Source: a virus. Taken from it: DNA of 64,000 bases. Of this stretch, positions 4,111-39,007 are shown in pieces. Numbering within the stretch: the first letter of the stretch is position 1; each line of letters starts with the position of its first letter. The DNA lies in IMG/VR virus record IMGVR_UViG_3300013102_000030, positions 110,137 through 174,136 of that record; one strand, given 5' to 3'. The position numbers and the translations under genes are program-made. The notes under the pieces were generated by a model. It saw nothing but the letters and a program-made list of their open reading frames with translations, was not told the origin of the DNA and did no database searches.

Positions 4111-4431
4111 ATGACCACCGAAGTCATTGAGAAGGAACAAGAAGAGGCCACCGAAGTCTCCGACGAACTCAAGGTCATCGAGCTTGAGGCCAACAGCAAG
4201 AAGTTTGAATTCGATACCCGCCATCGTTGTGACCACAGCGGTGTTGAAGGTACCAGCACGTCCTGCGGTGCACAGGCATATATCCGTGCCACGCTGAAGA
4301 ACGGTGACACCCTCATCTTCTGCTCCCACCATGCCAACGAAGTAGAGGCCGCTCTGAAGCCGCTCTGCTCCGAATGGTACTCAGAGACCAGCCGCCTTGT
4401 CCATGACCGCAAGAAGGGATCAGAGAACTGA
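4111..4431 (+). CDS. small Zn-binding protein (actinobacterial RCD..CGAQAY..FC.HH type)
   Basis: AAGGAG RBS; Cys/His motif. Confidence 0.7.
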   Translation: MTTEVIEKEQEEATEVSDELKVIELEANSKKFEFDTRHRCDHSGVEGTSTSCGAQAYIRATLKNGDTLIFCSHHANEVEAALKPLCSEWYSETSRLVHDRKKGSEN

Positions 4432-5255
4432 CCACGATACTATATCCCGGACCATCCGCTCCAACGTACTTTCCTCACGTAGAGGGTCGCACCTTTGAAG
4501 AGGAACTGCTGAAAGGCTTGATTACTCCACCTGATATCAAGATCTACCTTGTAGGTGGAGCCGTACGTGAGATCACCCGTGGATTCCCTGAGAAGGTCAA
4601 GGACTGGGATTTTGCTGTGGAGGCTCCGAGCTACGAAGGTATGAAGCAGTGGCTGGATCACAAGGGCTTTGAGATCTTCGTTGAGACTCCGCAGTACTTC
4701 ACCATCCGCGCCCGAGCGCCCAAGGGACTCTTCAAGTTCGCTGGAATCGACATGTCACACAAGACGTTCGACTTCACGCTCTGCCGCACTGAAGGTGAGT
4801 ACTCAGACGGACGACGGCCTGATGAAGTCAAGCCCGGAACCCTGCTGGAAGATCTCTCGCGCCGTGACTTCACGATGAACGCAATGGCGCTGGATTCCCG
4901 TGGGACGGTCATAGATCCGTTTGGTGGTCAACAGGACATCAAGGATAAACTGATTCGTCTGGTAGGTGGTACAGACCGCCTGAAGGAGGACTCCTTGAGG
5001 ATGCTCCGTGCCATCCGCTTTGCTGTCCAGCTTGACTTTGAGATGGATAATGATGTCTACGCCTTCCTCTTCAAGGAAGATAATGCAGAACTTCTGAAGA
5101 ACGTTGACGAAAATCGAATCCGTGATGAACTCACCAAGTGCTTCAAGATCGACACGCTGGAAACCCTGTGGATGCTCCAGAGCTTCCCTGCTATTGCGGA
5201 CAGATGCTTCAGAGGAGACATCTGGCTCATGCCCACCGTCAAGGGAGCTAAGTGA
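4428..5255 (+). CDS. CCA-adding/poly(A) polymerase-type tRNA nucleotidyltransferase (start CTG 4428 or TTG 4518)
   Basis: LVGGAVR, DWDF, EDLSRRDFTMNAMA, EDSLRMLRAIRF. Confidence 0.9.
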   Translation: MTTILYPGPSAPTYFPHVEGRTFEEELLKGLITPPDIKIYLVGGAVREITRGFPEKVKDWDFAVEAPSYEGMKQWLDHKGFEIFVETPQYFTIRARAPKGLFKFAGIDMSHKTFDFTLCRTEGEYSDGRRPDEVKPGTLLEDLSRRDFTMNAMALDSRGTVIDPFGGQQDIKDKLIRLVGGTDRLKEDSLRMLRAIRFAVQLDFEMDNDVYAFLFKEDNAELLKNVDENRIRDELTKCFKIDTLETLWMLQSFPAIADRCFRGDIWLMPTVKGAK

Positions 5256-5398
5256 CACCAGACCAAGAGCAAGAAAAACAAATCAACTACACTCAATTTC
5301 GACTTGACGAACTGAAGGTACGTCGTGATAAGATCGATGAAGAGATTGCCTACGAGCAGCGAGTGCTAGACAAGCTGCTCGGAGGAGTGGTAGAATAG
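5252..5398 (+). CDS. small coiled-coil hypothetical protein
   Basis: GTGA overlap, 48 aa, fills gap. Confidence 0.55.
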   Translation: MTPDQEQEKQINYTQFRLDELKVRRDKIDEEIAYEQRVLDKLLGGVVE

Positions 5399-5435
5399 TG
5401 TAGTAAGTCCTCACCAGAGGAAACTACCACAGTAA

Positions 5436-6716
5436 GTGACAAACATGGCAACAACCGTAGTTCTGGACACATCCGTTCTCCTCTCCGCAGGAAGGACGGC
5501 ACTGTATTCCTTTGGTGAAAACAACGTAGTCCTCCCCCTCGTAGTTGTAAGTGAGCTTGAGAAAAAGCGCAATGACCCGGATCTTGGTCTCGCGTCTCGC
5601 TCCGTTCTACGGGAGCTTGATATCCTCCGGTCACAGGGGGATTTGGCTAATGGAGTCTCCCTAGGGGAGGACTACGGCACACTTCGTGTTGAAATCAACA
5701 ACACTCACAATGTACCACTCGCGGTTCAGAACCGTAAGACTAACGATGCCGAGATCATCACAGTAGCACACAACCTTGGACGATTCCAAACGGTTGTGCT
5801 GATCTCCAAGGATATTCCGATGAAGATCCTTGCCGACATCGTTGGTGTCGAGACAGCAGACTTTGTTCCGGCCAATATCTCCGGAGACTTCATCGATAAG
5901 ACTGAGACCTACTGGGTAACGGCGGAAGAGATCAACCAGATTCACGAACACGGAACTGTCCGTCTGACTCTGGATGTGCCCCGCAACGTTGGTGTCATCC
6001 TTCGCTCCGAAGAGAATCCCAAGAATACAGCCCTTGCCATTGCAGGACCGGAGTTCAAGTTCAACAAGGTTCAGTCCTTCAACGTTTCCGGACTTGAGTC
6101 CCGTTCCGCTGAGCAGGCTATCGCCATTGACTACCTGATGGATGATTCTGTCAAGATCGTCTCCCTTGGTGGCCGTGCCGGTACTGGTAAGACTACTCTA
6201 GCACTCGCTGCCGCCATTGAGCAACTACAACAGTACAAGAAGATCACGGTCTTCCGCTCCATGCACGCTGTAGGTGGAGAAGAGCTTGGATTCCTCCCCG
6301 GATCTGAGGCTGAGAAGATGGACCCTTGGACTGCTGCAATCTACGATAGTCTAAACTCATTCCTCACACCGGCCCAGATCAATGCTCTGAAGACCAAGCA
6401 GGCCATTGAGGTTCTCCCGCTGACACACATCCGTGGACGTACGCTGAACAACTTCATCATCATTGATGAGGCCCAGAACCTTGAGCGTGCCACCATCCTC
6501 ACAGCCCTCTCCCGTATGGGTAAGAACGCAAAGGCTGTCATGTCGTGGGATGTCTCCCAGCGAGACAACTTCCGCGTAGGCCGACACGATGGTGTCTATG
6601 AGGTCACCAGCCGCCTACTGGGTGAAAAGCTGTTCGCCCATACGTCCCTCCAGAAATCAGAGCGCTCACCGGCAGCAGAGCTTGTTTCCCGCAAGCTGGA
6701 TGATTTCGACATCTAA
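5436..6716 (+). CDS. phoH: PIN-domain PhoH family ATPase
   Basis: PIN VLDTSVLL..EL..ND..SKD; GRAGTGKT, LGFLPG, IRGRTL, IIDEAQN. Confidence 0.92.
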   Translation: MTNMATTVVLDTSVLLSAGRTALYSFGENNVVLPLVVVSELEKKRNDPDLGLASRSVLRELDILRSQGDLANGVSLGEDYGTLRVEINNTHNVPLAVQNRKTNDAEIITVAHNLGRFQTVVLISKDIPMKILADIVGVETADFVPANISGDFIDKTETYWVTAEEINQIHEHGTVRLTLDVPRNVGVILRSEENPKNTALAIAGPEFKFNKVQSFNVSGLESRSAEQAIAIDYLMDDSVKIVSLGGRAGTGKTTLALAAAIEQLQQYKKITVFRSMHAVGGEELGFLPGSEAEKMDPWTAAIYDSLNSFLTPAQINALKTKQAIEVLPLTHIRGRTLNNFIIIDEAQNLERATILTALSRMGKNAKAVMSWDVSQRDNFRVGRHDGVYEVTSRLLGEKLFAHTSLQKSERSPAAELVSRKLDDFDI

Positions 6717-6726
6717 CCACTACCAC

Positions 6727-6762
6727 AGAGAAGCCATCGAGTCAAACTCGGTGGCTTTTTCT
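6727..6762 (+). terminator. intrinsic terminator
   Basis: AAGCCATCGAGT-caa-ACTCGGTGGCTT followed by T run. Confidence 0.75.
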
Positions 6763-6824
6763 GTACCCGTATGGTAGAATAGGATGGACTAACTTTATGC
6801 TTCTTTACTCTTTAGGAATAGCCC

Positions 6825-7634
6825 GTGGCGCTACCAACAAACATTAGCTATGGCACAGTAGTAGGACAGTTCTTGGCCGCGATTCAAGACGGGCCTGACC
6901 CTGACAAGCTCCCAGAAGGTATCCCTATGAAGGGTACCGTCACTTTTGTGGCTTCTCCTGTCTACGTTCTAGACTACACCGCCAACCCCAACCCTGTCAC
7001 GATCCTCAAGACACCTATCACATGCTCTCTGGACTCAGAGGGCTATCTGTGTGCACCTTACTCAGCGTCTGACTCTCCTCTGTCTCGTGGAGTTCCGCTG
7101 ATTGCTACGGACGATCCTGACATCCTGCCTATCGGCTGGACATGGAGTGTCATCTATAACCTCACGGACCCGTACGGCAACCGAGCCAACCTGCCAACAC
7201 AGAACATTGCTGTTCCATCCGGAGTCACTACTGACCTTACCACAGCAATGAACATTGCTGCTGCCAACGGCTCCATCATCACCAAGGGTGCCACCGGAGA
7301 TCCCGGAGACCTTGTCGGAGTCACCAACGGAGGATCATGGGGAAGCTCCGTCACGCTTTCCGCGTACCCTCAGACCTACATCTCCACCCTGTCTGCCTCT
7401 GTCACGTCCCTGACGCTGCCTACAGAGGTCTATCCGAATGAGTCTGGAACAATCACCCTCGTACTCACTCAGGACGCTACAGGAGGCCGTACAATCACGT
7501 GGCCTGCTTCCGTCAAGTGGCCTGAGGGAATTGCTCAGCAGCCAGCAGCGGCTGCAAATTCAATTTCGGTGATTCATCTTCTTTGGACAGGAACAACATG
7601 GCTGGGAATGCTAGGAGGTAAGAGCTTTGCGTAG
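6825..7634 (+). CDS. tail-associated/fibre protein
   Basis: Actinophage-type N-terminus (YGTVVGQF..D.PD.D..P); short GxT/GxP stretch; C-term LTQDATGGRTITWP..VKW. Confidence 0.65.
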   Translation: MALPTNISYGTVVGQFLAAIQDGPDPDKLPEGIPMKGTVTFVASPVYVLDYTANPNPVTILKTPITCSLDSEGYLCAPYSASDSPLSRGVPLIATDDPDILPIGWTWSVIYNLTDPYGNRANLPTQNIAVPSGVTTDLTTAMNIAAANGSIITKGATGDPGDLVGVTNGGSWGSSVTLSAYPQTYISTLSASVTSLTLPTEVYPNESGTITLVLTQDATGGRTITWPASVKWPEGIAQQPAAAANSISVIHLLWTGTTWLGMLGGKSFA

Positions 7635-10600
7635 AGACAACTTTGACAGCGGAAGTCAACCAGTCCGCAACCTTGCCTACATCCCAAGCTTTGAAGTTGC
7701 CAGCGGAACAGTCAACACCCGAACTAACCTGTACAAAGATCCTCACTGTGAGGGTGTCAGTGGGTCAGTAACTGTCCGTACAAACCTCTGCACAAACCCC
7801 GGACCACAGGCTGTAGGCGGAACCACAACAACCATCCGCACCAATCTAAGCACTAACTCACGTGGTGTCAGTGCCTTGCCCGACTACAACGGTGCTAGTT
7901 ATCAGACCATCACTACAGTAACAGGGATAACAGGGCATCCGGAAGGCATCACGACTGCCAACCGAGTAAGCTACAATGCAGGGGCAACCAATCCGGGAGT
8001 AGCTCTGCTCAATCCTGCTCAAGCAAACACTAAGTACACGATTAGTGCATGGGTATACCACGAGACCGTACCTCCAGCAGGAGGTCAAGCCTTCGCCATG
8101 GCAGGACTCACCAGCAGTACACCAACAACACCTGTAGCAGGGGTTTGGCAACGTTTGTCATGGACCTACACTACCACAGCATCACCTAGTTACTTTGGTT
8201 TCCGTGTAGCATCTCCTACAGGATCAGGAAGCTTCCTCATCACCGGAATTCTCATTGAGAGGTCCGGATTTCTTGGTGACTTCTTTGACGGTGCAGGAGC
8301 CAGTAGAACCAATCTCGCCAATGATCCCCGCGCTCTAACCATTACTGGCACTACGGGAGTAGGATGGCGCAATAGTCGTTGGTTCGGTGGGAACGGTACC
8401 ACTGTCGGTACTCATACTAATATCACCGGTATGCAGGATGGACCTACACCGCAACTAACCACCTATATCCGTAAGCAGTGGACTGGGGACAACCTCAGCA
8501 CCAGTAACGGTGACACCGGATTTGAGTTGTCCACAGGCTTCAACACTACAGCAGGCGTAGCTTATGCCGGAGGATGGAGTGTCCAAGCCGGTGTCACATA
8601 CTCTCTTTCAGCATGGCTGCGCCCCACCAGTGATAAAGGTAATGCTGGATTTGATATGACGTGGAGAGATAGTGCAGGATACTATATCACACGAAGTACC
8701 TTCTCCACGTATACGCTTCCCGCGAACGTCTGGACCCGTGTCACTGCCACAGTAACCGCACCCTCAGGAGCGATCACAGCAGGTCTCGTATTGGACGTAG
8801 ATGGCGGTTCGTTGTGGAAGTCAGGGGAATCTCTCGACGGCACTGGTCTCATCATTGAGCGCACAGACACTCCCAGCACTATCTTTTATGAAGGAACTGG
8901 TGACTTCAGCTACTCATGGACAGGAACAGCCAACAATTCGGCCAGTATCCAGACCGCCGCAGGTACTCCAGCTATCGGTGGAGCTAACAACGGAATAACG
9001 TACAGAAGTGGTATCTCAGGGAACTACTTTGCCCGAACTTTCTTCACCAGCGATCAGATCATGGACAGTGGTCCGAGCCTTCAGGGTACAGCCCCCGGAC
9101 TAACAGCCAGCAAGACCTATACCTTGTCTGTAGATGTATGGGTAGATCGAGACCGCACCTATAGACTAAGCGTACAAGGGAACGGTACCACCAACACTAG
9201 CACCAGCTTTACGCAGACCGCAGGAACCACCGTCCGCAGAATCATCACATTCCAGACGAATGTGTCGGCTACAGGACCATCAAACGTTGCACTGTACGTG
9301 CTCCGTAGTGATGTGCTGCCCGGATATATTGATGTATCTAAAATCCTCATCGAAGAGGCCCCCCAAGCTCTTCCATATTTTGATGGTAGCAATCCTGTCC
9401 GTAATCTTGCGGCAGGCACTAACCCTTCTGCACTAAGTGGTATTACAATGACCTCTGGGGTCTCCTACAAAGGAGATACATGGAGGCGAGCCAGTGTTGC
9501 CGCAGGAAACAGTGGTTGGATTGTTAGACAATACGTCAATCTTTTCGACCTGATTCCGGGGCAAACCTACACCGCAGCAGTCACCGTTGCCAATGACAGT
9601 ACCGCTGATAGTGTAAGCATTGCGCTGGATTGGTGCGACACAGCAGCAACTACTGTTACACTTGCCCCCGGTGAGGTACGTCGCCTCAGGGTCACTAACA
9701 GTAAGGCATCCTACAGCAACGTATACCGGTTTGCCGACCTACAGGTAAACCAGAATACCGCAGGTAGCCGCAGTGTACTTTTCAAGGATTTCACTGTAGA
9801 GTTTGGTGCTACACCCGGCTATCAAGGCGCAGCAGATTACACTACCGCGTGGACTGGTGTAGTCAACGGCTCCACTAGTACGATGACGGCTCCGCTTCCC
9901 GGAGGGTGGTCTAAATCTGGCAACACTGTCGTCATCCCGACCACTGAGGGAATCAGCGGTAAAGGTATCAAAATCATCAAGAATGGAGGGTACGGATTCG
10001 TTGGAACCACTCTCAGCGGTCTAGCTGTAAGCACTGCCTACACATGGTCAGCGGATATTTTGACGAGTCAGACCACTGTCAACACTGTGGACCGAAGCAG
10101 TCTCGTCGGCGGGTATAGCCCGAGTGACAGAACTGTCGTGTCCGATCTCGTGACCAGAATTCAAAGGACCTTTACCACTGGACCGAGTGAGACTACCAGA
10201 ACCATCAGTATCGCTGGATGGGAGAATGCTACCGTGCCGGATGGCAGCATCCTTATCATCGACAACATACAAGTAGAAGCTAACGGGCAGGCTACTCCCT
10301 TCTTCTCGGGAGACACACCAGCAGCTAATGAGTTCACCTACGCATGGACCGGAACTCAGCACGCCAGCACCAGCACCGAGACAGCACCGGGAGCCAGTGG
10401 ATACACTGGATCATACAGCAACCGTATCGCATGGCAGTCTACCCAGTGGAGCGCCAGTGGTACCAAGAGCCTTGCAGTTGCCGGTGGTGCCCCATCACAG
10501 GACAGCTTCAGCCAGTTCGGACAGCCGTATCCATTCCCAGCGGACTTCGCCGGGAAGACTTACACTATACTTGCCCGACTCCGTACTGAGGAAGCTTTCC

Positions 10601-11475: not shown

Positions 11476-11550
11476 GGGTTGACACGTTGTCTTTCTGTAG
11501 AGTATCGTAATTCTTATCAGGAACACCGATACTCTACAGAAGGGCACATC

Positions 11551-12408: not shown

Positions 12409-12418
12409 CTTCCACAAG

Positions 12419-17483: not shown

Positions 17484-18767
17484 GTGCGAGTACAACTCTC
17501 CGATGTTCACGGAGATATCAAGATCGATGCCTCACAGGCGGTGAGCTTCCTCAAGGCATGGTTCAATCCGGATGACGTGATCTCCCTCGTGGGACGGGCA
17601 TCCGAAAAGAAGGGCAAGCTGGATACCCTCTCCCAGTTCGTACCCGTCAAGGATCTTTACTCCCTCACGAATGAGGATCTGGACTCACTGGTTTTCTCTG
17701 ACGGTGAGAAGTGGAACCTCTATTTCGGTGCTGCTCCCGTCAAGGAAGCTGTCTCCCTGTTCCGTCGTGGAACTGAGGACAACATAGCACGGTTGGTAGG
17801 GGTTTGGGCTGATATCGATGTGAAGGAGGGCGGGTTCAATTCTCAGGATGAGATCCTGCTCTTCCTTCAGACCCTTGCGCTCCAGCCTACCATTGTGGTA
17901 GCATCAGGTTCTGGAGGCATTCACGCCTACTGGAAGCTGGATGAGAAGTCATCCGCAGCAGGCAAGACCCGTGAGACCTACAAGGAACTCACTCTTCGCT
18001 GGTGGGCCTACATCGATGACGCAGCAGGAGAATCCCGCAAGATCGACCGTCTCTATGACCTGACCCGAATCTTCCGGCTTCCCGGAAGTGCGTACTTCCC
18101 TCGTGAAGGTTCCGGAGGAAAGGCAGGCAGTGTCCGTCTTCTCTCTGTGAACTCCAACGTCTACTCCGCTGAGCAGATCCTGTCAATCTCACAGGCTGCT
18201 CACGTGAAGAAGGAAGAGGAACGCAAGCGCGTTGCCATGGAAGACAAGCAGCTTCGTGAGCGGACCATCGGTGAAGCCATGCGGCAGGTCAAGCTGGGCC
18301 ACGGCTATAAGTTTGAGGAGTATCAGAACTGGTCCGATGTCATGGCGTATGCTGAGATTGAGGACTACGTCAACACCAGCTATACGTGGGACTTCCTGAG
18401 GGATTACGGCTGGACATTCCTGCGGACTCTGCGGGACGGCTCCGATGAGTGGGCGCGTCCGGGACGAAACGAACGCTCTGCGGTGGTCAACTACCGTGAA
18501 GATGACAGGGGACCGGCATCACCGGTCATGAGCCTGCTGTCCATGTCCGATGAAACCGGACTGCTGGATCTGTTCGATGCCAACGTACCTTTGACCAAGT
18601 TCAGAGTCATGCTACGCTACAAATATCAGGACAATGGGCTTGCCATGGTCGATGACATGCGGGATGAAGTTGTGTCCTTCATGAAGGCCAAGGAAGTAGC
18701 CCTCAAGCAGGAACAGGTCTACGCGCAGTACGCGCTCAATCTCACCAATCAATTCAGGAAGGCATAA
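17484..18767 (+). CDS. RepB'-like / AEP DNA primase
   Basis: WADID, SGSGGIHAYW, DLTRIFRLPGS, W.RPG. Confidence 0.8.
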   Translation: MRVQLSDVHGDIKIDASQAVSFLKAWFNPDDVISLVGRASEKKGKLDTLSQFVPVKDLYSLTNEDLDSLVFSDGEKWNLYFGAAPVKEAVSLFRRGTEDNIARLVGVWADIDVKEGGFNSQDEILLFLQTLALQPTIVVASGSGGIHAYWKLDEKSSAAGKTRETYKELTLRWWAYIDDAAGESRKIDRLYDLTRIFRLPGSAYFPREGSGGKAGSVRLLSVNSNVYSAEQILSISQAAHVKKEEERKRVAMEDKQLRERTIGEAMRQVKLGHGYKFEEYQNWSDVMAYAEIEDYVNTSYTWDFLRDYGWTFLRTLRDGSDEWARPGRNERSAVVNYREDDRGPASPVMSLLSMSDETGLLDLFDANVPLTKFRVMLRYKYQDNGLAMVDDMRDEVVSFMKAKEVALKQEQVYAQYALNLTNQFRKA

Positions 18768-18769
18768 CC

Positions 18770-18907
18770 ATCTCTTACATCTACGACAAAATGCTCTACG
18801 TCTACTGCTACATTGAGGTCTTCGTGTGGCAGCAGGTTGAACGGGTCCGGGACTTCCGTGCGAACGTCCAGTGGATCAAGAAGAACGGAGTCTACAGGGG
18901 GGAATGA
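18770..18907 (+). CDS. small hypothetical protein (ATC start; alternative ATG 18791)
   Basis: AGGAAGG 7 nt before ATC; ends in ATGA overlap. Confidence 0.5.
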   Translation: MSYIYDKMLYVYCYIEVFVWQQVERVRDFRANVQWIKKNGVYRGE

Positions 18908-19521: not shown

Positions 19522-19585
19522 GCGTCTCCCCTCTCTGCTTGCAGGGAGGGGTTTGACGTTTCAAGGTAAATGAAAGGCTAAAGAA

Positions 19586-19870
19586 ATCACTGTAACACGC
19601 GGTACAAGCAACTCAAACGAAAGGGGATCTGCTGAAGCCAGACGCATACGCAAGCAATGGCTGCTGGATGTCTTCGGCAACGGAACCATAGCGTTCTGCT
19701 GCTTCCATGGCTGCAAGGAAGCCCTCACCTTTGAGACTATCACAGTTGATCGAATCCAACCCGGATGTGAGGGCGGCACCTATCGTCGCGGAAACATCCG
19801 TCCCATGTGCGGATTCCACAACTCATCCACAGGCTCCAAACTGGGCCATGAGAGAAAGAAAAAGAAATGA
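19586..19870 (+). CDS. HNH endonuclease (no canonical start; ATC proposed)
   Basis: TVTRGTSN..RGS..RR.RKQWLL..FG.G...C...C...LT..TITVDRI.PG..GGTY.R.NIRP.C..HN; absent from ORF track. Confidence 0.8.
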   Translation: MTVTRGTSNSNERGSAEARRIRKQWLLDVFGNGTIAFCCFHGCKEALTFETITVDRIQPGCEGGTYRRGNIRPMCGFHNSSTGSKLGHERKKKK

Positions 19871-22426: not shown

Positions 22427-22732
22427 ATGAAAGAGAGCTATACACATATGTCAGAACTGTCCGGTGAAAAGATCGAGCGACTTCTCTGGAAGGCAGGGTG
22501 CGAAGTTGAACACAACGACGGCTTGGAAGAGATCAGCCCGATCAAGGTGACTGTGGGGGACACCGTAGTTATCATCTCGGAAGCATGGTTCGAAGAGGGA
22601 GAGTGGTTCGTTGACACTGACACCCTCACGCTGGATAAGCTGGTAGAGGGTGAGAAGGTCGATGAGGACTTGGACTTCATTGACACGGAGGAAGACCTCG
22701 TGGAACACATCCTGAAGCTGGGAGGGGAATGA
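22427..22732 (+). CDS. acidic hypothetical protein
   Basis: ORF, D/E-rich. Confidence 0.65.
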   Translation: MKESYTHMSELSGEKIERLLWKAGCEVEHNDGLEEISPIKVTVGDTVVIISEAWFEEGEWFVDTDTLTLDKLVEGEKVDEDLDFIDTEEDLVEHILKLGGE

Positions 22733-22896
22733 AAGGCTCAATCGTCCGTATAGCTCCCAAGTTTCCCATGCCCACCGGCTACGAGCGCAGGGGCAAGGTC
22801 ATCGGAGAGAATGAGACCTCAGTCGTTGTCCAGATCGAAGACAAGCCTGTGTCCATCCTCGTCCGCAAGACCCACATTGCCGTGATGTCGGCATGA
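22729..22896 (+). CDS. small SH3-like barrel protein
   Basis: MKGSIVRI..GKVIGE..VVVQIE; RBS GGAGGGG; ATGA overlap. Confidence 0.65.
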   Translation: MKGSIVRIAPKFPMPTGYERRGKVIGENETSVVVQIEDKPVSILVRKTHIAVMSA

Positions 22897-24247: not shown

Positions 24248-24288
24248 GACCAAAATCTCTAACAGAAACAACAAGTAAAGGATCTATC

Positions 24289-24539
24289 ATTTCCACTGCA
24301 ACCATCTCCGCTCCTGCTGCCACTGCCGATCAGGAAGTGCTGCACACCACGTCTGTAAGCTGGTAGCCAACACCAGCAACTGGCGCAAAGTCGCCAAGGA
24401 TCTCATCGGTGATGAGCCTGTGACGTACGCTGAGCGGTCCAAGAAGGACACCCTGAGGAAGTTCCCCATCATCAACATCTCCTCCTCCGACAAGGAAGCT
24501 CTGGATCGCGTGTTGACAAAGGCAGCAGAGGTCGAATAG
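24289..24539 (+). pseudogene. small gene with ATT start and -1 frameshift near 24345
   Basis: AAAGGA RBS, STATISAPAATADQEVLH, then coding-like frame HVCKLVANTSNW...EVE*. Confidence 0.5.
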
Positions 24540-31038: not shown

Positions 31039-31396
31039 GACAAGGTCCCTGTCTCTGGGGATTGCTGGCCTGCTTGCCAGTGCCATGATCACCGGCTGTA
31101 CCCCTAGCGGTGAAGTCATCGATGCTGACTACGCCAAAGCCTGTCAGGACAAGCGGACTGAGATCCGAGTAGAAGACAACAACTGCTCTGAGAATGGCCG
31201 CTCCGGAGGCTACTACGGCTGGTACTTCTATCAGACCGGAGGAGGAACTGTTCCACCTGTTGGAAGCAAGATGACAGGAGGAAGCACCACTGCTCCTGCT
31301 GCTGGCAAGTCAGTTGCTCCGGCTCCTGTCAAAGGTGGAACTGTTGCCCGTGGTGGATTCGGAACCAGTGCAAAAGGTGGCTCCATCGGGGGTTGA
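31025..31396 (+). CDS. Gly-rich lipoprotein (RGGFG tail, DUF1190-like)
   Basis: lipobox ITG-C; C..RV....C; RGGFG. Confidence 0.7.
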   Translation: MKSRKTRSLSLGIAGLLASAMITGCTPSGEVIDADYAKACQDKRTEIRVEDNNCSENGRSGGYYGWYFYQTGGGTVPPVGSKMTGGSTTAPAAGKSVAPAPVKGGTVARGGFGTSAKGGSIGG

Positions 31397-31421
31397 CATC
31401 CCGGCTCTCCTCAATTAGTCT
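31393..31421 (+). promoter_or_regulatory. sigA-type promoter
   Basis: TTGACA-N17-TAGTCT. Confidence 0.75.
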
Positions 31422-31461
31422 AAGTGTATCGAAGTTACCAACGATTGAAGGAGGAGAAGTC

Positions 31462-32108: not shown

Positions 32109-32422
32109 AAGACGCAATTCGCTTGCAGGGTCTCCGGTTCGTCGGCTTTGAAGAAGCCAGCGAGCCGGAACCTCGCATGTCCTACCCCATCAAGACACAA
32201 CAGCAGTACGAGTTCCTGTTCCACAGTCTCAGCATGGGACGGAACTGGATGCAGATCTTCTTCCCTCCGCGTGAGGAACTGTTGACCCGACTCAACCGCA
32301 GACTCAAGGGGTTCAAACTGGATGAACCTCACAACTGGCGCGGCCTCCGTGAGGAAGATCTGATTGACAAACAGCAAAAGTTCCCCTATAGTGGAACAAG
32401 TGCCCGAAACCATACCAAGTAA
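32105..32422 (+). CDS. hypothetical protein
   Basis: TTGA overlap. Confidence 0.6.
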   Translation: MKDAIRLQGLRFVGFEEASEPEPRMSYPIKTQQQYEFLFHSLSMGRNWMQIFFPPREELLTRLNRRLKGFKLDEPHNWRGLREEDLIDKQQKFPYSGTSARNHTK

Positions 32423-32436
32423 AGGATCAAACACTT

Positions 32437-33009
32437 TTGAAGATTGACGAAAAGACCGGCCTTGTCCAGCTTCCCGAAGACCTGTTCTGGAGGGTAGAGG
32501 AAGACAACCGCAAGGCCGATGTCTACGACAACCGCAGGGAACTCAAAGGACTGAAGCTAGCACTCGTCCGCAAGACCACCACGACCGTTCCGGGTGAAGA
32601 AATCACCACCACCGAACAGGTTGAACGGACGGGCTTCTGGAACCGCCTGTTCCACGGCCCGTATGAGACCAAGACTGTCGTCACAAAGGGGGAGGACAAA
32701 GAGGAGCCGGATGAGGATGTCATCTACACCAAGTCCTCCTTTGAGACCTACTCCACTAAGGAAGACTACAGCGATCACAAGGTCCGAGAAGGATTCTCCT
32801 ACTGGCATCAGGACACATGGAGCAACCGTCTCTACTACATCAAGCAGTTGCCCACCAGCGCTGAAACCCTGACCAAGCTCTCTGAAGAGATCTTCAGCCT
32901 GTGGATCGACCGTGAGCATGGACGTGCCCTTGCCGAAGATGCAGCACGTTACCGTGACTCCTTCGTCGGTGACTACCCGCCCAAGTCTCTTGTAGGTGCC
33001 TCCGCTTGA
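32437..33009 (+). CDS. GLPxLP...GDYPPK family protein 2
   Basis: TGLVQLPEDLFWRV ... FVGDYPPKSL. Confidence 0.75.
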   Translation: MKIDEKTGLVQLPEDLFWRVEEDNRKADVYDNRRELKGLKLALVRKTTTTVPGEEITTTEQVERTGFWNRLFHGPYETKTVVTKGEDKEEPDEDVIYTKSSFETYSTKEDYSDHKVREGFSYWHQDTWSNRLYYIKQLPTSAETLTKLSEEIFSLWIDREHGRALAEDAARYRDSFVGDYPPKSLVGASA

Positions 33010-33434
33010 TCGACATTACAACCGGCCTTCCTGAGCTTCCTGAAGGGTACTGGTGGGAGGTCAAGAGTGATCGGAAGATCAGCCAGTGGATTGACACGGC
33101 TGCTGTCTACGATGAGGGATACTCCGTCAACATCATGAAGATGTTCACTGAAACCATCGCTCTGAAGAGGAAACACTGGTGGAGTATCCGGAAGACTTAT
33201 GAACCCGTAACCCCCTATGAGCGGGAGTTGACTGTGGAGAAGACGTTCATCCTCAAGCATGATGTCTTCAGCGCGTTTGACTCCACGGACCTCTCTGCCA
33301 CCATCACACCGGAAGGTGTCCTGAAGGCAGCACAGCGCTGCAAGGATACATATGACCGACGAGTAGGCTCCTACCATCTGGTCGGTGTATACCCACCCAA
33401 GAAACTCGTAACGACGAAAGATGACAATGCTTGA
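33006..33434 (+). CDS. GLPxLP...GDYPPK family protein 3
   Basis: TGLPELPEGYWWEV ... LVGVYPPKKL. Confidence 0.75.
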   Translation: MIDITTGLPELPEGYWWEVKSDRKISQWIDTAAVYDEGYSVNIMKMFTETIALKRKHWWSIRKTYEPVTPYERELTVEKTFILKHDVFSAFDSTDLSATITPEGVLKAAQRCKDTYDRRVGSYHLVGVYPPKKLVTTKDDNA

Positions 33435-33573
33435 TTTTGATGCTATGGTGGAAGCAGCAACAGAGATCCTGATGCCAGCCGCCGAAGAGACACTGAACGG
33501 TGTCACTGATCTGATTCCGGAACTGGATGACGTTTTTCCTCTGGATGAGTTCGGTACGGAGGGCCTGTGGTAA
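33421..33573 (+). CDS. small acidic protein
   Basis: 50 aa, fills gap. Confidence 0.5.
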   Translation: MTMLDFDAMVEAATEILMPAAEETLNGVTDLIPELDDVFPLDEFGTEGLW

Positions 33574-33728
33574 GCTTACGACAGGAGATCGCTGAAGCAC
33601 TGTACAACCACTGGAGGAGTTCCGACAGTGAACTCAAAGTGTCGTGGGCCGATGCTCCCGACAACCTGCGTGGTGTCTTTCTCCGACAGGCCGACGTGGT
33701 TGAGAAGGTGATCGATGGCGGGTCCTGA
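33567..33728 (+). CDS. small helical protein (IAEALY..W...R..F..QA)
   Basis: GGAGG + GTG. Confidence 0.55.
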   Translation: MVSLRQEIAEALYNHWRSSDSELKVSWADAPDNLRGVFLRQADVVEKVIDGGS

Positions 33729-33915
33729 GGAGAAGATACGCAAAGTTCTTGAAGAGCACGAGGCATACACCGTTATCCGGTACAAGGACAACGACGCTGA
33801 CAATCGTGTAGGCTATCAGTGCAGATGCGGAGAAGAGGATGCTCCCGATGGAGAACTCTGGGGCCGATCATGGCTCATCAACCACCAGACGACAGAAATT
33901 GTCAAAGTACTATAA
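33715..33915 (+). CDS. small protein with H..CxCG..H motif
   Basis: ORF; similar motif in 52206 gene. Confidence 0.6.
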   Translation: MAGPEEKIRKVLEEHEAYTVIRYKDNDADNRVGYQCRCGEEDAPDGELWGRSWLINHQTTEIVKVL

Positions 33916-33931
33916 GAAAAGGGTAAGAGAA

Positions 33932-34765
33932 ATCGCTAATCATACTTTCGCACTAAATGACCTTGTCCACGTCACGCGTGGATTCTACAAGGGACAGGCT
34001 GGCCGGATCATCTCCAAGAGCCTGAACTCCGTCTCCATCAAGTCCTCGCAGGGAATTGTCACGGTGAACGTCGGAGATGTGGCCGCAGGGTCTTCACCGA
34101 TCCCCATTCCTCCGGCAGAGAACGTCTACCCGTTCAAGCCCGGACAGACCGTCAGGGTCAACCGCAGGACCAGCCAGCACGACGGGAAGTCCGCCATTTA
34201 TCTTGGCCCCGATCCGGATTACTCTGCCATTGCACGAGTACGTCTGGCAATGTCTCCCTACACCATTGTCACGTTCTACTTCAGTGATCTGGTGGAAGTT
34301 CCTGAAGTCACGGCCAAGCCGAAGGAAGCTCCTTTCCTTTCAACCACCAGCCGCGTTGAAGGCAAGCAGATCCATTTTGATGATGTGAAGATCGGTGATA
34401 CGATTACATCAACGCGCACCTACAAGAGCGGTGACGTGGAGACATCGGTTATCCATACGGGTGTCGTCTCCAAGCGTGGCTTCTCGGGTCTGTACACCAG
34501 TGACTCAAACTGCATCAACCCTCGGGGCACTGAAACCCTGACGCTGGTCAAGGCCGCTGTGGAGAAGGACGAACTGCTGGAGACGCTGAAGAGCTTCCAG
34601 TCCAATACGGTTCTGGTGTTCAGTACTTCTGTCACGTTCTCCTACACGGCTGTGAAGACCGGCCAGAGTTGGATTCTGACAGCATCTTCTGGCTCCACCC
34701 GAACCATCACCAGCGGTAAGCTCCGAGAGATCATCGGAAACCGCAAGTACACCAAAGTCAACTAA
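33932..34765 (+). CDS. multi-KOW/SH3 protein (ATC start proposed)
   Basis: FALNDLVHVTRGFYKGQAGRI; FKPGQTVRV; FDDVKIGDTI. Confidence 0.75.
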   Translation: MANHTFALNDLVHVTRGFYKGQAGRIISKSLNSVSIKSSQGIVTVNVGDVAAGSSPIPIPPAENVYPFKPGQTVRVNRRTSQHDGKSAIYLGPDPDYSAIARVRLAMSPYTIVTFYFSDLVEVPEVTAKPKEAPFLSTTSRVEGKQIHFDDVKIGDTITSTRTYKSGDVETSVIHTGVVSKRGFSGLYTSDSNCINPRGTETLTLVKAAVEKDELLETLKSFQSNTVLVFSTSVTFSYTAVKTGQSWILTASSGSTRTITSGKLREIIGNRKYTKVN

Positions 34766-34786
34766 CAAACGAAAGGTCCACACTTT

Positions 34787-35653
34787 ATGACTATCAAAAT
34801 TGGCGATTACATCCGCGTAGACATTGACAACGAATGGCTCCGCTCCGGCTGGCAGGGCATGGAAGGCGTTGTCACGGGCTTCTACCAGTCGTGGTCTGAC
34901 AAGCAGCCGCTGGTCCAGTTCAAGGTCACCAAGGAAGCTCCCGGAGGCTCCTCATCCCGCAAGGTCGGTGACGTGGTCAACGACATGGGCCTGCGTCAGC
35001 CCAAGGTCAAGGTTCTCTCGTCCAAGTTCAAGCTCGGTGACCGTGTCAAGTACGTCGATCCCATGTACTTCTCCTCCTACAACCCGATTGACTACGAGAT
35101 CGTAGATTTCGTTCATGCATACGACGGCCTGTACCACGTTCGGTGCGCTGAGATCCGGAATGGCTCCCGTACCGGTCTGATTCACACTCACGGTCAGAAG
35201 GAACTGGCGCTCGCTCCCAAACAGCCCAAGGAGGGTGATGAAGTCTTCCTGAAGGACATCAAGGAGGGACAGACCATCCGGATCTCCGGTACCCGCCACG
35301 GTATCAAGATCGTCCGTGAGGCTGTCGTTGGATCGATCTCCGAGTACGGCATCTACTCTCACGATGGCTCGCGGATCGACCACACCGGAGTCCAGTGGAA
35401 GTACGTTCTGGTCAAGGAAGCACCGGAGAAGGGTCCGAAGAAGGAGACGCTGAGCAAGATCGCCAATCTTCCCGGACATCACGTCGTCTACCAGAGTGGC
35501 AACGGCCACTTCGTGCAGGCCCTTACGAAGATCGGTGGTGAGTGGTCATGGCTTCACGTCAAGCCGCGCAACTCCGGTACCGAAATCGTGACCAACAAGG
35601 AAGTCGCTGAAGCCCTTGAGGCCGGTGCAGTGATCCTGAAGCCTGCCTCCTAA
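34787..35653 (+). CDS. multi-SH3/KOW protein
   Basis: IKIGDYIRV; FKLGDRVKY; LKDIKEGQTIRI. Confidence 0.8.
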   Translation: MTIKIGDYIRVDIDNEWLRSGWQGMEGVVTGFYQSWSDKQPLVQFKVTKEAPGGSSSRKVGDVVNDMGLRQPKVKVLSSKFKLGDRVKYVDPMYFSSYNPIDYEIVDFVHAYDGLYHVRCAEIRNGSRTGLIHTHGQKELALAPKQPKEGDEVFLKDIKEGQTIRISGTRHGIKIVREAVVGSISEYGIYSHDGSRIDHTGVQWKYVLVKEAPEKGPKKETLSKIANLPGHHVVYQSGNGHFVQALTKIGGEWSWLHVKPRNSGTEIVTNKEVAEALEAGAVILKPAS

Positions 35654-35718
35654 TGGAAGGTACGCTGATCATCATCTTCCAGCTGCTCATCATTGCAGCT
35701 TCCCAGTAATAACTACAC

Positions 35719-35762
35719 GTGAAAGGGCGGGGCTTGACGGTCCCGCCTTTTCACTGTAAGCT
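35719..35762 (+). promoter_or_regulatory. terminator hairpin with promoter -35 in its loop
   Basis: GTGAAAGGGCGGGGC/GTCCCGCCTTTTCAC; TTGACG(35734)-N17-TAAGCT. Confidence 0.7.
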
Positions 35763-35784
35763 AATAACAACGCGAAAGGAACAT

Positions 35785-36015
35785 GTGAAAGTCTGGCTCA
35801 CGCTGCTGACCCTTGTAGGAATCATGGCAGCAACCGTTATTACGATGGCGCTGGTGATGATTTTCAGCGCTCCGGTCTGGACCGCAGTACCTGTCACACT
35901 CGTGACCGTCGTGGGACTGGCGTGGCTGGGCACACGAGAAAATGTTGCCCCTCCGCTGGTCATGAAAGAATCCGTCTGGAATGACGAAGACAACGAACAG
36001 AAAGAAGACAAATGA
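35785..36015 (+). CDS. membrane protein
   Basis: GAAAGGA + GTG; 2 TM. Confidence 0.65.
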   Translation: MKVWLTLLTLVGIMAATVITMALVMIFSAPVWTAVPVTLVTVVGLAWLGTRENVAPPLVMKESVWNDEDNEQKEDK

Positions 36016-36284
36016 CCTTCCCTTACAGCACCAACCGTGACGACTACACCGGCCCTCTGCTGCCTAAGCGCAGCATCAACACCATCCAGAAGGGTGTCTC
36101 TGTCTTTGCCGGAGCCGTTACCCTCGTGGTAACCCTGCTGGCCGCTGGCTCCTTCGCTCTCGCCATGACCATCAGCCCGGGGTGGTTCATTGCCGTAGCA
36201 GTATTCGGCGGCTACGCGCTCATCTCAGCCATCTGGCTCTACGTCGTGCGGATGATGCTGAAGTCCGCTGGACAATGGCGGTAG
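36012..36284 (+). CDS. membrane protein
   Basis: 2 TM. Confidence 0.65.
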   Translation: MTFPYSTNRDDYTGPLLPKRSINTIQKGVSVFAGAVTLVVTLLAAGSFALAMTISPGWFIAVAVFGGYALISAIWLYVVRMMLKSAGQWR

Positions 36285-36285
36285 T

Positions 36286-36543
36286 ATGTGCATAAACTGT
36301 GTAGACCATAACGTTCCCGGACTGCTGTTTCCGGAGCGTCCGGTCATCGGATCGGAACTGTGGCTGTCGGCTGTACGTGCTGTCTCCATTCAGGAAGACT
36401 ACGTCAAGTCACTGGAGCGGAAGCTGGAAGATCCCAACAGGGATGTATTCCAGCGGCAGTTCATCAAGTCTCTAATTGACACCGCGTCAACAAAGCTGGT
36501 AACGTTGCGTGCAGCACTGAAGGAAATCGATGAAGGGGGATGA
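36286..36543 (+). CDS. hypothetical protein
   Basis: ORF. Confidence 0.55.
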   Translation: MCINCVDHNVPGLLFPERPVIGSELWLSAVRAVSIQEDYVKSLERKLEDPNRDVFQRQFIKSLIDTASTKLVTLRAALKEIDEGG

Positions 36544-36544
36544 C

Positions 36545-36754
36545 ATGAGCGAACAGAGCTTGAACAAAGACCTGCTGGATGGTAGGATTGCAGCACTGGA
36601 TACTGATGTATCCGACCTGACGGAGATGCTGGAAACGGATGACTCGATTCCTCCCGCAGCCATGGAAGTCTATGAGAGAAATCTTGAAGCAACCAAGAAG
36701 CGGCTGGAAGGGCTGAAGAACTTCCGGGAGATCATTGAGGATCTGGATGGCTGA
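36545..36754 (+). CDS. coiled-coil hypothetical protein
   Basis: AAGGGGGA RBS. Confidence 0.6.
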   Translation: MSEQSLNKDLLDGRIAALDTDVSDLTEMLETDDSIPPAAMEVYERNLEATKKRLEGLKNFREIIEDLDG

Positions 36755-36944
36755 CTTCAGCGCAGAGATCGTTATCAACTTCCCGACCGATAAGGGTCCG
36801 GCCAAGAAAGGTATCCTACTGGAGGCCAACTCCATTCAGGCGCTCAAGCACAAGATCTATCTGCTGAGCTTTGAAGAGGTTTGGGGAGAGAACGACGCAA
36901 CACTGCGTCAGTGGAAAGCCGACAACCAGATCAGGACCAAATGA
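36747..36944 (+). CDS. hypothetical protein
   Basis: GAGGA RBS. Confidence 0.55.
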   Translation: MADFSAEIVINFPTDKGPAKKGILLEANSIQALKHKIYLLSFEEVWGENDATLRQWKADNQIRTK

Positions 36945-37090
36945 TAGCACTCCTCCTGACCCTCGCATGCGCGGCAGTCGGCTGGTGGAACATTGTCAAC
37001 GGAGTGTTCTGGATGGCATGGATCTGCTTCTTTATGTCCGCCCTCTGCCTGCTGCATTTCATTGAATGGCTTGTGCGGGACGCACGCTAA
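36941..37090 (+). CDS. small membrane protein
   Basis: ATGA overlap; hydrophobic. Confidence 0.55.
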   Translation: MIALLLTLACAAVGWWNIVNGVFWMAWICFFMSALCLLHFIEWLVRDAR

Positions 37091-37121
37091 GAAATTTTTG
37101 TAACCGATATAGTAAGGAAAA

Positions 37122-37553
37122 ATGACAGAAACACTGAAGTACACCGAGATCTATTTCCACGACATCAAGGTTGGGGATGAGATCAAGGCAGTCTACACCT
37201 ACGACGATGGCTCCACCAGTGAGCGTACCGGTAAGGTTACCCGCAAGGATCACCTTGGAAACTTCACCAGTGAAGCCGGAAACCCCATTGCTCAGACACT
37301 TGACGTTACGTCGTGGAACAAGGTCTCACAGAGGGCCTTCTACCGCAAGGCAAAGCCTTACGTCTTCCCGAAGAATCCGGGAGCGGTCATCCTCGCGGAC
37401 ATTACCGGTGGCACCATCCGTGACCGCAGGTTCGTTTTCAACGGTGTTGTCTGGCACTGCGCCGGTATCAACGACCCGCGTCACCGCTCGGAGAGTTCGC
37501 TCCGAAGTGACTACACCAACTTCCGCACCATCTACGAAGGAGTCTCAGCTTGA
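37122..37553 (+). CDS. F.DIK.GD SH3-like family protein
   Basis: IYFHDIKVGDEIKA...G.V; FP..PGAVI second half. Confidence 0.75.
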   Translation: MTETLKYTEIYFHDIKVGDEIKAVYTYDDGSTSERTGKVTRKDHLGNFTSEAGNPIAQTLDVTSWNKVSQRAFYRKAKPYVFPKNPGAVILADITGGTIRDRRFVFNGVVWHCAGINDPRHRSESSLRSDYTNFRTIYEGVSA

Positions 37554-37966
37554 TCAAGATCCGCAAGAAGGCTATTGCAGCCGCAGCCGTTGCACTGGTA
37601 GGTGCAGCCGCCCTGACCGCCTGTGGTCCGGGTACCTCAGACCGCGACATGGCAAACAAGAACATGTCCACCGCAGCGGACAACTTTGAGATCACCCGCC
37701 ACATCGTAGGCATCAACGGCATCACCGACAAATACCTCTTTGAGGTTGTCGGCAAGTGCTCCATCAACGATCAGGGCAACCAGCTTGAGGTCTTGTGTAA
37801 GGAAGGGAACAACCAGTACAAGAAGTACATGATGGGTATCTCTGACAACGTGACCTACATGGTTACTCCGCTGGACAACACCGACGTTTCGGTCACTCAC
37901 ACCCGCGTGATCTTCAAGCCGGAAACCCTCATCCCCGAAATCGAACTCTCTCTCGGAAAGCAGTAG
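37550..37966 (+). CDS. conserved phage lipoprotein
   Basis: lipobox LTA-C; AADNFEI.R.IV.INGITD.YL..V.G.CS. Confidence 0.8.
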   Translation: MIKIRKKAIAAAAVALVGAAALTACGPGTSDRDMANKNMSTAADNFEITRHIVGINGITDKYLFEVVGKCSINDQGNQLEVLCKEGNNQYKKYMMGISDNVTYMVTPLDNTDVSVTHTRVIFKPETLIPEIELSLGKQ

Positions 37967-37969
37967 AAC

Positions 37970-38395
37970 TTGACAAACACATCAGCATGGGAAACCATTA
38001 CCTTTGACCAGATCAAGATTGGTGACAAGATCCGCACCGTCTCCAAGGAGCCGGATGGTACCAAGCGAACCATTGTAGGTACCGCAAAGAGCAAGTCCAC
38101 CATGTGGCGAGCGTACTACTCAGATGGTGGCAACACTCTGGTAGACGCTGACAACAAGTACTTGGTCTCGCTTGAACGCAAGCGCACGGATGTCTTCGTG
38201 CTTCCGAAGCGCGTTGCTGCCGTCGTTGAGGCTGTGCGTATCTCCTCAGGTGAAACGACCCGCCTTGTGCTGGCCGATCCGGAGGATGAGGACAAGTGGC
38301 ATGACGTGGTCAACCAGTCGTGGATGAGTGATGACGAAGTGAAGAGCCGTTACCGCTCCCACAAGGTCATCAGCAAGGGGGTCAAGAATGCCTAA
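37970..38395 (+). CDS. F.DIK.GD SH3-like family protein
   Basis: WETITFDQIKIGDKIR; FVLPKR..AVV. Confidence 0.75.
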   Translation: MTNTSAWETITFDQIKIGDKIRTVSKEPDGTKRTIVGTAKSKSTMWRAYYSDGGNTLVDADNKYLVSLERKRTDVFVLPKRVAAVVEAVRISSGETTRLVLADPEDEDKWHDVVNQSWMSDDEVKSRYRSHKVISKGVKNA

Positions 38396-38837
38396 TCCCG
38401 AGAAGTGGGAAGGGATCACCTTTGACGAGATCAAGAAGGGTGATGAAATCCGCTGCATCATCACTGATGAAGGCGGATACCGCACTGACACCCGTGGATT
38501 TGCCAACGAATACAAGGCAGGCTATCCGGGACCGCGCTGGGTTCATGGCAGCGGCTGGGTAGCAGCCCGTAAGGAAGGCACCGGCACCAGTAAGTCAACC
38601 TTCTACCGGAAGAAACCGCCGCCGTTCGTCTTCCCGCAGAAGTCCCTTGCTGTGATCGAAGGATACAACAGGGGTGTGGGATCTCGGGTCAAGCTGTTCA
38701 AGCCTGTCCGCTCCCAACGAAGCAGGGAGAACGTCTGGCTCCCCGTCAATCCTGAAGGTGTCAGTTCCCGGTACACCGAGGAATACATCATCGGGTGGTC
38801 TGACCTGAAGGTACTGCACGAAGGCGTAGACCTCTGA
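38388..38837 (+). CDS. F.DIK.GD SH3-like family protein
   Basis: WEGITFDEIKKGDEIR; FVFPQK..AVI; ends HEGV like paralogs. Confidence 0.75.
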   Translation: MPNPEKWEGITFDEIKKGDEIRCIITDEGGYRTDTRGFANEYKAGYPGPRWVHGSGWVAARKEGTGTSKSTFYRKKPPPFVFPQKSLAVIEGYNRGVGSRVKLFKPVRSQRSRENVWLPVNPEGVSSRYTEEYIIGWSDLKVLHEGVDL

Positions 38838-39007
38838 GTGTACAGCCCGGAGAAGGCATTCATGATCCCAGAGCCGAATGGGACACCTGCATAGCCGTCA
38901 AAGGCGAACACATTTGCTGGCGGCGACATGGACATGAGCGTGATCATGGCTGTGCCTGTGGTGAAGATTGGCCCTACGGAATAGGACACGACGAATACGA
39001 CTGGTAG
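38834..39007 (+). CDS. small Cys/His Zn-binding protein (CTG start proposed)
   Basis: CTGA overlap; C.....HIC.R.HGH...H.C.CG..W; no canonical start in frame. Confidence 0.6.
   Translation: MSVQPGEGIHDPRAEWDTCIAVKGEHICWRRHGHERDHGCACGEDWPYGIGHDEYDW

Follow-up and report, generated by a model that had tools for sequence, protein, structure and literature searches.

Near-cognate codons as predicted starts of at least eight conserved genes in a metagenomic relative of Arthrobacter phages

Results

Sequence comparison confirms ATC, ATT, or CTG as the predicted start codon of at least eight conserved genes in a large soil virus related to Arthrobacter phages and in these relatives. The virus is represented by a single metagenome-derived contig of 174,136 bp (IMG/VR record IMGVR_UViG_3300013102_000030), and the DNA analyzed here, referred to as the window, is its last 64 kb (bases 110,137–174,136). 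A preliminary description of the window, made from its letters alone, had listed six loci at which such near-cognate codons stand behind good Shine-Dalgarno (SD) sequences, and upon re-reading the sequence we found the coordinates, SDs, spacers, and codons of all six to be exact. The alignment of ortholog starts, which was the check proposed there, is favorable at six of the six loci, each of which has relatives with a canonical start (ATG, GTG, or TTG) or the same near-cognate codon, at or adjoining the homologous position. The case is made by where the codons lie, by the match of these positions to ortholog starts, by the absence of canonical starts that could be used, and by purifying selection on the genes. 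All window genes discussed below are on the + strand, and G000 denotes the numbering of this genome outside the window.

The genome has a G+C content of 54% and encodes 30 tRNAs. Among named phages, it is closest to Mimi, Racecar, and Talia1610 (Talia), which infect Arthrobacter globiformis, have genomes of ∼190 kb, and show ∼75% nucleotide identity in the aligned parts; phage Atuin is an additional relative. Extra IMG/VR lineages were obtained using a helicase alignment, which served instead of the primase after the latter, as a single query against viral contigs, had given no match. These lineages are L005/L006, L007–L009, L012 (G001, 168.6 kb), and L010/L011 (G002, 158.6 kb). In the helicase tree, the more distant lineage G002 and L011 forms the outgroup, and the ingroup consists of Atuin with L009 on one side and the window, Mimi/Talia, L005, and G001 on the other.

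The HNH endonuclease gene (19572–19870, 94 codons; locus 1) displays an SD, GAAAGG (19572–19577), followed by an 8-nucleotide (nt) spacer, ATC 19586, and a TGA stop at 19868–19870. As originally described, the frame is closed upstream by TGA 19571–19573, and the sole in-frame canonical start, ATG 19805, is codon 74 of 94. The start reads ATC ACT GTA ACA CGC (I-T-V-T-R-G-T-S) in the window and ATC ACT GTT TCA CGT in Atuin, where there is no canonical start until the C terminus. In L009, GAAAGG and 8 nt precede ATA ACA GTA ACA, and G001/L012 (ATGATAGGCTATACCCATT) has ATT at the homologous place. ATG is found there in Mimi, Talia, and Racecar (ATG ACA ACA CGA, M-T-T-R-G-T-S), and in L010/G002 and L011 (M-P-V-T-R, M-T-V-T-R). 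A single alignment column, in the consensus I/M-T/P-V-T-R-G-T-S, alternates between ATG and all three Ile codons. Because the ratio of nonsynonymous to synonymous substitution rates (dN/dS) is 0.05–0.13, at saturated dS, among lineages with no canonical start, this gene appears to have long been kept functional with an Ile codon at its head. The preliminary description had considered that an indel might have put ATG 19570 out of the HNH frame. This scenario is not supported, as that ATG is absent in Atuin, which has ATC, and in L009, which has ATA.

The HNH identity comes from a tblastn search that gave matches in 525 phage records; most of the matches listed are annotated as HNH endonuclease, and the top ones show 54–77% identity. 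The residues C..C...CEGG...GN..P.C..HN are conserved, with the cysteine/histidine (Cys/His) and HN motifs retained; no match to Pfam was found for the protein at E ≤ 0.01. In Atuin, the gene is unannotated and lies inside a 344-nt gap. A terminator-like G+C-rich hairpin (19529–19552) is located directly 5′ of the HNH SD.

The clearest predicted case of a deeply conserved AUY start is a small gene downstream of the primase (18756–18907, 45 codons; locus 5). It has the SD AGGAAGG, a 7-nt spacer, ATC 18770, and a stop at 18905–18907, and the alternative ATG 18791 mentioned in the preliminary description is indeed present downstream. As assessed by tblastn, this open reading frame (ORF) of ∼45 residues is present in every lineage, and the records of Mimi, Talia, and Racecar do not annotate it. 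In six of six lineages an SD is followed, after 2–7 nt, by an in-frame ATC or ATT, and the codon there is never canonical. The arrangement is GAAAGGA, 6 nt, ATT in the Mimi group; GAAAGGA, 2 nt, ATC ATC in Atuin; AAAGG, 4 nt, ATC ATT in L005; TAGGAG, 5 nt, ATC in L009; and AGAGGA, 6 nt, ATC in L012. L005 and L012 have an in-frame stop just 5′ of the SD. The motif K-(I/L)-Y-(D/N), situated between the Ile codon and ATG 18791, is conserved with variation at third codon positions, and the position of ATG 18791 reads CTC in Mimi and CTG in L012.

The tRNA nucleotidyltransferase (CCA-adding enzyme) gene (4411–5255, 275 codons; locus 4) has the SD AAGAAGGGA and, after 8 nt, CTG 4428, which overlaps the TGA stop (4429–4431) of the preceding gene (4111–4431) in the sequence CTGA. 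As claimed previously, starting at this CTG fills an 86-nt gap: there is no canonical start in frame at 4407–4517, and the first one, TTG 4518, leaves that gap. The window and Atuin have a common junction, AAGAAGGGATCAGA(G/A)AACTGAC, in which the SD and 8 nt precede a CTG lying within the stop of the upstream gene. The start reads CTG ACC ACG ATA (L-T-T-I) in the window, CTG ACA ATC in Atuin, and ATG ACA ACC ATC (M-T-T-I) in G001. The sequence TFEE(E/Q)L, conserved in all three, is encoded 5′ of TTG 4518 and of the annotated ATG of Atuin. The N-terminal extension shows a proportion of nonsynonymous differences (pN) of 0.32 and of synonymous differences (pS) of 0.75, and at least one other frame contains a stop. 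A PolyA_pol head domain (PF01743, E = 6e-23) covers residues 39–177 of the CTG-started protein, and the records of Mimi, Talia, Racecar, and Atuin name the ortholog tRNA nucleotidyltransferase. In Talia and Racecar, the enzyme has a GTG start right at the domain, and the extension is dispensable there. The possibility that CTGA overlaps are sites of frameshift fusion was rejected, since at the CCA junction G001 carries a distinct gene with its own ATG, and Talia a GTG.

A comparator gene (22729–22896, 55 codons) illustrates the same arrangement with a canonical codon. It starts at an ATG in an ATGA overlap, behind the SD GGGAGG. With the same SD, its ortholog has GTGA in Atuin and CTGA in Mimi, Talia, and Racecar, and this alternation of ATGA, GTGA, and CTGA implies that CTG occupies the start position in the latter relatives. 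The ortholog is unannotated in Mimi (in a 226-nt gap), Talia, and Racecar. Overlaps of the NTGA type are very common in this genome, e.g. ATGA at 22729, 1402, and 36012, and TTGA at 31393, 32105, 33006, and 37550. With regard to the public records, Atuin gene 194 (L004 23081–23272) is annotated from 23144, which is too late, the GTGA junction being at ∼23103, and the Mimi (L001 25098–25262) and Racecar annotations omit the ortholog altogether.

The second CTG in the window belongs to a gene for a small Cys/His-rich protein (38834–39007, 57 codons; locus 3). CTG 38834 overlaps TGA 38835–38837 in a CTGA overlap with the gene at 38388–38837, GAAGG lies 9 nt 5′ of it, and the whole frame (38804–39007) is devoid of ATG, GTG, and TTG, as had been reported. 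Whole-genome comparison identified a homolog in Atuin (58% identity over 51 aa, E = 1e-12), namely gene 264, in which the domain is duplicated in tandem. That gene has a GTG start in a GTGA overlap and begins V-T-S-G-E-G-I-H-D, whereas the window reads CTG AGT GTA CAG CCC GGA (L-S-V-Q-P-G-E-G-I-H-D). A search against 5.8 billion proteins gave no match for this ORF, and no homolog was found in the fetched loci of relatives. Its codon-usage score (−0.118) was unsupportive and proved wrong, since the Atuin homolog later emerged. The ORF is, on this comparison, a genuine predicted gene lacking a canonical start, in which CTG is the only near-cognate codon served by both an SD and an overlap. Directly 3′ of it is a terminator-like G+C-rich hairpin (∼39009–39042), which is followed by a promoter-like pair, TTGACA...TATAGT (∼39043–39071).

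The gene at 33917–34765 (277 codons; locus 2) had been labeled KOW, a designation that our searches do not bear out, since the protein matches no Pfam family at E ≤ 0.01 and its homologs are unnamed hypothetical proteins. We refer to it as KOW-like. It has the SD AAAAGGG (33917–33923), an 8-nt spacer, and ATC 33932, and a start at ATG 33839 would, as noted before, produce an overlap of 77 nt with the previous gene. Orthologs of 259–263 aa were found in a large protein database (P0004, P0005, and P0006), and there are none in Mimi and Atuin. The ATG (Met) of the orthologs falls on Ile32 (ATC) of the window, or 1–2 residues off (L019–L021), the start DNA being AAAAGGGTAAGAGAAATCGCT in the window versus GAAAGGTAAGAATGAGT in L019 and GAAAGGTACAAATGAAA in L021. 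SD and start align in the DNA as well (AAAAGGGTAAGAGAAATC versus GAAAGGTAAGAATG and GAAAGGTACAAATG), and the ortholog frames are closed 3–13 codons 5′ of the ATG. An upstream in-frame codon, TTG 33899, is the start chosen by the gene caller (288-aa P0003). No SD was seen before it, and codon scoring is negative for the stretch from TTG 33899 to the ATC but favors coding in the previous gene, which overlaps that stretch.

The last of the six loci is part of a small conserved gene (locus 6). Its N-terminal part (24278–24366) has the SD AAAGGA, a 6-nt spacer, and ATT 24289, just as the preliminary description says. What had been overlooked is that this copy is frameshifted, the frame ending at TAG 24364–24366 and the C-terminal part (24360–24539) continuing in the −1 frame with 84–88% identity to Mimi, L005, and L012. 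One nt is missing at ∼24356/7 (TCTGT^AAGCTGG versus TCCGTCAAGCTGG in L012), and the conserved C-terminal 59 residues are out of frame; the gene is continuous in Mimi, Atuin, L005, L009, and L012. Codon scores of +0.33 for the ATT frame, and of +0.51 for the C-terminal frame versus −0.50 for the upstream extension of the latter, indicate a frame switch. ATT 24289 matches the TTG start of Mimi gene 203, Atuin gene 200, L009, and L012, which is found behind AAAGGA-type SDs. L005 reads ATC ATC ATT TCA ACC (I-S-T), and no canonical start was seen over ∼90 nt 5′. At the break itself there is no slippery site, no SD was seen, and the missing base is not in a homopolymer. Programmed −1 frameshifting was rejected, with no slippery site at this locus and five relatives continuous.

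To find further cases, we used a scan of five whole genomes that is blind to codon identity and detects conservation 5′ of the first canonical start, after which flags due to conserved leaders, tRNA artefacts, and true frame breaks were removed. It recovered the HNH, CCA, and post-primase genes and loci 3 and 6, and added two genes outside the window. A NAMPT-like gene (G000 24524) has GAAAGG, 7–9 nt, and ATT in G000, Atuin, G001, and Mimi, while G002 has ATG at the same position. A conserved NPLLDTDSYKLSH motif lies 5′ of its first canonical ATG, and position 3 of the Pfam NAMPT_N profile corresponds to residue 11, also 5′ of the first canonical codon; dN/dS is 0.22–0.30 among lineages sharing the near-cognate start. 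The Atuin record places the start of this gene at an internal ATG, and the Mimi record at a TTG farther upstream, with an overlap of 17 nt. A gene for a DUF3307 membrane protein (G000 22489) has ATC in G000 and G001 and TTG in G002, and position 1 of the Pfam DUF3307 profile is residue 6, 5′ of the first canonical codon.

Predicted near-cognate starts were thus counted in 8 of ∼134 conserved genes of the genome (∼6%). An SD (GAAAGG, AAAGG(A), AAGG(G)A, or AGGAAGG) is found 6–10 nt from the codon in all eight cases, with spacers of 2–9 nt in relatives. There is no usable canonical start before conserved or essential residues in the HNH, CCA, NAMPT-like, and DUF3307 genes and locus 3, nor in the post-primase ORF of Mimi and L012. 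For all but the post-primase ORF, the homologous alignment position in some ortholog is a canonical start, that of locus 3 being offset by two codons. The frequent use of TTG, another point of the preliminary description, is borne out by 21 of 126 conserved genes, versus 19 with GTG and 86 with ATG.

The bare motif is not enriched. In five genomes and all frames, for codons at the head of ORFs of 50 codons or more, an SD 5-mer precedes 4.4–4.9% of ATC/ATT/CTG, versus ∼4.3% of other codons and 20.8% of ATG. As a null, SD-like motifs inside real genes are followed by an in-frame ATT, ATC, ATA, or CTG at a spacer of 6–10 nt in 105 of 890 cases (11.8%), whereas such a codon behind an SD is found in eight of the eight genes for which no canonical start is usable. 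The resulting 0.118^8 (∼4e-8) is far beyond chance but is a rough figure, in that two of the eight SDs (AGGAAGG and TAAGGA) closely resemble, but do not belong to, the four motifs of the null, and six of the eight genes were initially chosen by their codon. The bare motif is at chance, and it is context and conservation that carry the case.

Discussion

These are probably functional phage genes that are translated from near-cognate AUC, AUU, AUA, or CUG codons by the host ribosome and initiator tRNA. Two settings may be distinguished. In the first, a GAAAGG/AAAGGA-type SD is found 6–9 nt 5′ of an Ile codon, as in the HNH, KOW-like, and post-primase genes and locus 6, and in the NAMPT-like and DUF3307 genes outside the window. 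In the second, represented by the CCA enzyme and the Cys/His-rich protein, the CUG is part of a 4-nt CUGA stop-start overlap with an upstream SD, and a ribosome ending the upstream gene would restart there. Both would amount to ordinary 30S initiation, with the initiator tRNA placed on a near-cognate codon and aided by either a well-spaced SD or termination-reinitiation. Initiation factor 3 (IF3) rejects such complexes, so that output is predicted to be low, and higher when IF3 is limiting, as for infC and sigR. It is plausible, if speculative, that a weak start serves to dose a nuclease in the case of HNH. The distribution of codons makes near-cognate starts a predicted trait of the clade, since these positions are ATG or TTG in the outgroup G002/L011, and within the ingroup the near-cognate state has outlasted saturating synonymous divergence.

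Several points weigh against this. The evidence for initiation is sequence-based. In Escherichia coli, AUU, AUC, AUA, and CUG start at ∼0.1–3% of the efficiency of AUG, hence useful expression is not guaranteed. Three loci have in-frame canonical codons (ATG 18791, TTG 4518, and TTG 33899) that could be used, and in the KOW-like gene the ATC is seen only in this contig, with TTG 33899 in frame. The GTG of the Atuin Cys/His gene does not align on CTG 38834 but two codons downstream of it. Finally, the missing base at locus 6 may reflect either a defective copy of the gene or an error in the contig.

Initiation at those three canonical codons, with upstream conservation reflecting a constraint on RNA or SD, is improbable. 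In its favor, such codons are in frame at loci 2, 4, and 5, and a gene caller did pick TTG 33899. However, it is impossible for HNH, locus 3, and the NAMPT-like and DUF3307 genes, in which no canonical codon precedes essential or conserved residues. In addition, no suitably spaced SD was seen 5′ of the alternative codons, the change upstream of them is biased toward synonymous sites (as in the CCA extension) with stops in other frames, and the ATG of orthologs aligns with the near-cognate codons rather than with the alternatives.

A different explanation of the same starts is that start-codon selection is relaxed during infection by Arthrobacter jumbo phages of the Mimi/Atuin type, either through a phage factor that lowers IF3 fidelity or through an unusually tolerant host initiation machinery. 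This would explain why unrelated ingroup genes have near-cognate starts while the outgroup has ATG or TTG, and, if true, AUY and CUG would be efficient, possibly time-gated starts rather than weak ones. We consider it doubtful at best. Nothing that would refit initiation was found in the phage, whose genome contains no homolog of IF3 (IF3_C), IF1, or peptide deformylase. Two candidate tRNAs were also dismissed. A phage initiator tRNA for AUC/AUU is not apparent, the tRNA-Ile(GAU) having a paired 1:72 and no G-C run in the anticodon stem. An 82-nt tRNA-Met(CAU) (G000 97,762–97,843) has a 1:72 mismatch and a long extra arm, and its anticodon stem is not initiator-like; the G001 homolog, ∼72% identical in a gapped alignment, has no extra arm.

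Gene decay, in which starts were lost by mutation and the genes are silent or dying pseudogenes, is very unlikely. ATC, ATT, and CTG are one-step mutants of ATG or TTG, and each near-cognate codon is indeed one substitution from a canonical start in some relative; locus 6 is frameshifted, and the contig has two more frame breaks outside the window. Yet near-cognate codons are common to lineages separated by a dS of 0.6–1.4, in which the proteins are intact with dN/dS of 0.05–0.30, the post-primase ORF has ATC or ATT in six lineages, and the NAMPT-like gene has ATT in four. Least probable of all is that sequencing or assembly errors in a metagenome-derived contig created the odd codons: there are at least three frame breaks relative to relatives, but these lie outside homopolymers, and the same codon occurs at five of the six loci and in the NAMPT-like and DUF3307 genes in independently sequenced genomes, i.e. 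the isolates Atuin, Mimi, Talia, and Racecar and separate metagenomes. Such an error may still lie behind the KOW-like ATC and the locus 6 deletion, for which exact-pattern scans of viral and metagenome contigs gave no independent or near-identical copy.

Translation from near-cognate codons has well-known precedents. In E. coli, infC (encoding IF3) and pcnB start at AUU, a codon that initiator tRNA reads there. The phage genes resemble these in combining an Ile start codon with an ordinary SD and conservation among relatives, and in being often mis-annotated to a nearby canonical codon. They differ from infC, a single host gene in an IF3 feedback loop, in that at least eight unrelated phage genes, read from sequence, are concerned. 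To our knowledge, only a few E. coli genes with near-cognate starts have been described, and ∼6% is far above this. In Streptomyces, IF3 represses the non-canonical starts of infC (AUC) and sigR (GUC), and such starts are mis-annotated (PMC5472188). Similar to sigR are the actinobacterial setting and a non-canonical start missed by annotation limited to ATG, GTG, and TTG (PMC5472188). On the other hand, sigR is a host gene in which a weak GUC start has been shown experimentally to set protein level, and the phage genes use another class of codon. The deliberately weak or IF3-sensitive initiation proposed in the preliminary description is extrapolated from this E. coli and Streptomyces biology. 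Both CTG cases are reminiscent of AUGA/GUGA/UUGA coupling, as they sit in NTGA overlaps of the type common in this genome. We are not aware of CUG being documented as a normal restart codon. In E. coli, reinitiation depends on initiator tRNA, and an excess of IF3 inhibits it where an SD is absent (PMC2268962, which also describes how IF3 affects non-canonical starts), whereas an SD is present at the CTGA overlaps described here.

Near-cognate starts as such are known, and what is notable here is their frequency, their conservation across the clade, and their visible effect on public annotations; our literature search found no description of them for these phages. Phage annotation pipelines and the rules of SEA-PHAGES accept only ATG, GTG, and TTG as starts, and conserved genes of this clade are lost or shortened as a result. 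The suggestion of the preliminary description that genes are hidden from standard annotation is borne out by the missing HNH gene of Atuin and the missing post-primase ORF and 22729 ortholog of Mimi, Talia, and Racecar, and by the N terminus of the NAMPT-like protein, which is wrong or missing in the Atuin and Mimi records. Since the relatives can be cultured on A. globiformis B-2979, they offer a ready system in which to measure the strength of AUC, AUU, AUA, and CUG starts in an actinobacterium, and which could show whether phages dose nucleases or other enzymes through weak starts.

Additional observations

The remaining flags for upstream conservation in our scan were rejected as conserved leader or promoter DNA, or because of stops in relatives. 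They correspond to stop-to-stop ORFs from 1375, 12423, 20684, and 25080 in the window and from G000 48334 and 68960. A gap analysis of the window for further hidden genes gave no other convincing case; in a rough gene map, its largest stretches with no canonical-start ORF of positive codon score are 52784–53366 and 54567–55491.

Frame irregularities were also seen outside the window. At G000 ∼66,470–66,520, a large gene resembling those for tail fibres shifts frame near CTCAAGTCAACC, through either a genuine break or a fault of the assembly; in Atuin and G001 this gene is continuous through GN(M/L)IVDG...SGTINGG. At G000 ∼104,850–104,870, a missing base splits a gene whose frame is unbroken in G001, Atuin, Mimi, and G002 (...IRLL(T/K)M(R/I)KV...), the upstream part ending at TGA and the downstream part running from a conserved Met in an ATGA overlap. 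Finally, at G000 ∼48,680–48,760, five of five genomes conserve an overlapping ORF that lacks a start codon and follows a shared CCTCGCGCCCTACGG ending the preceding gene, an arrangement resembling the programmed frameshift of tail assembly chaperones.

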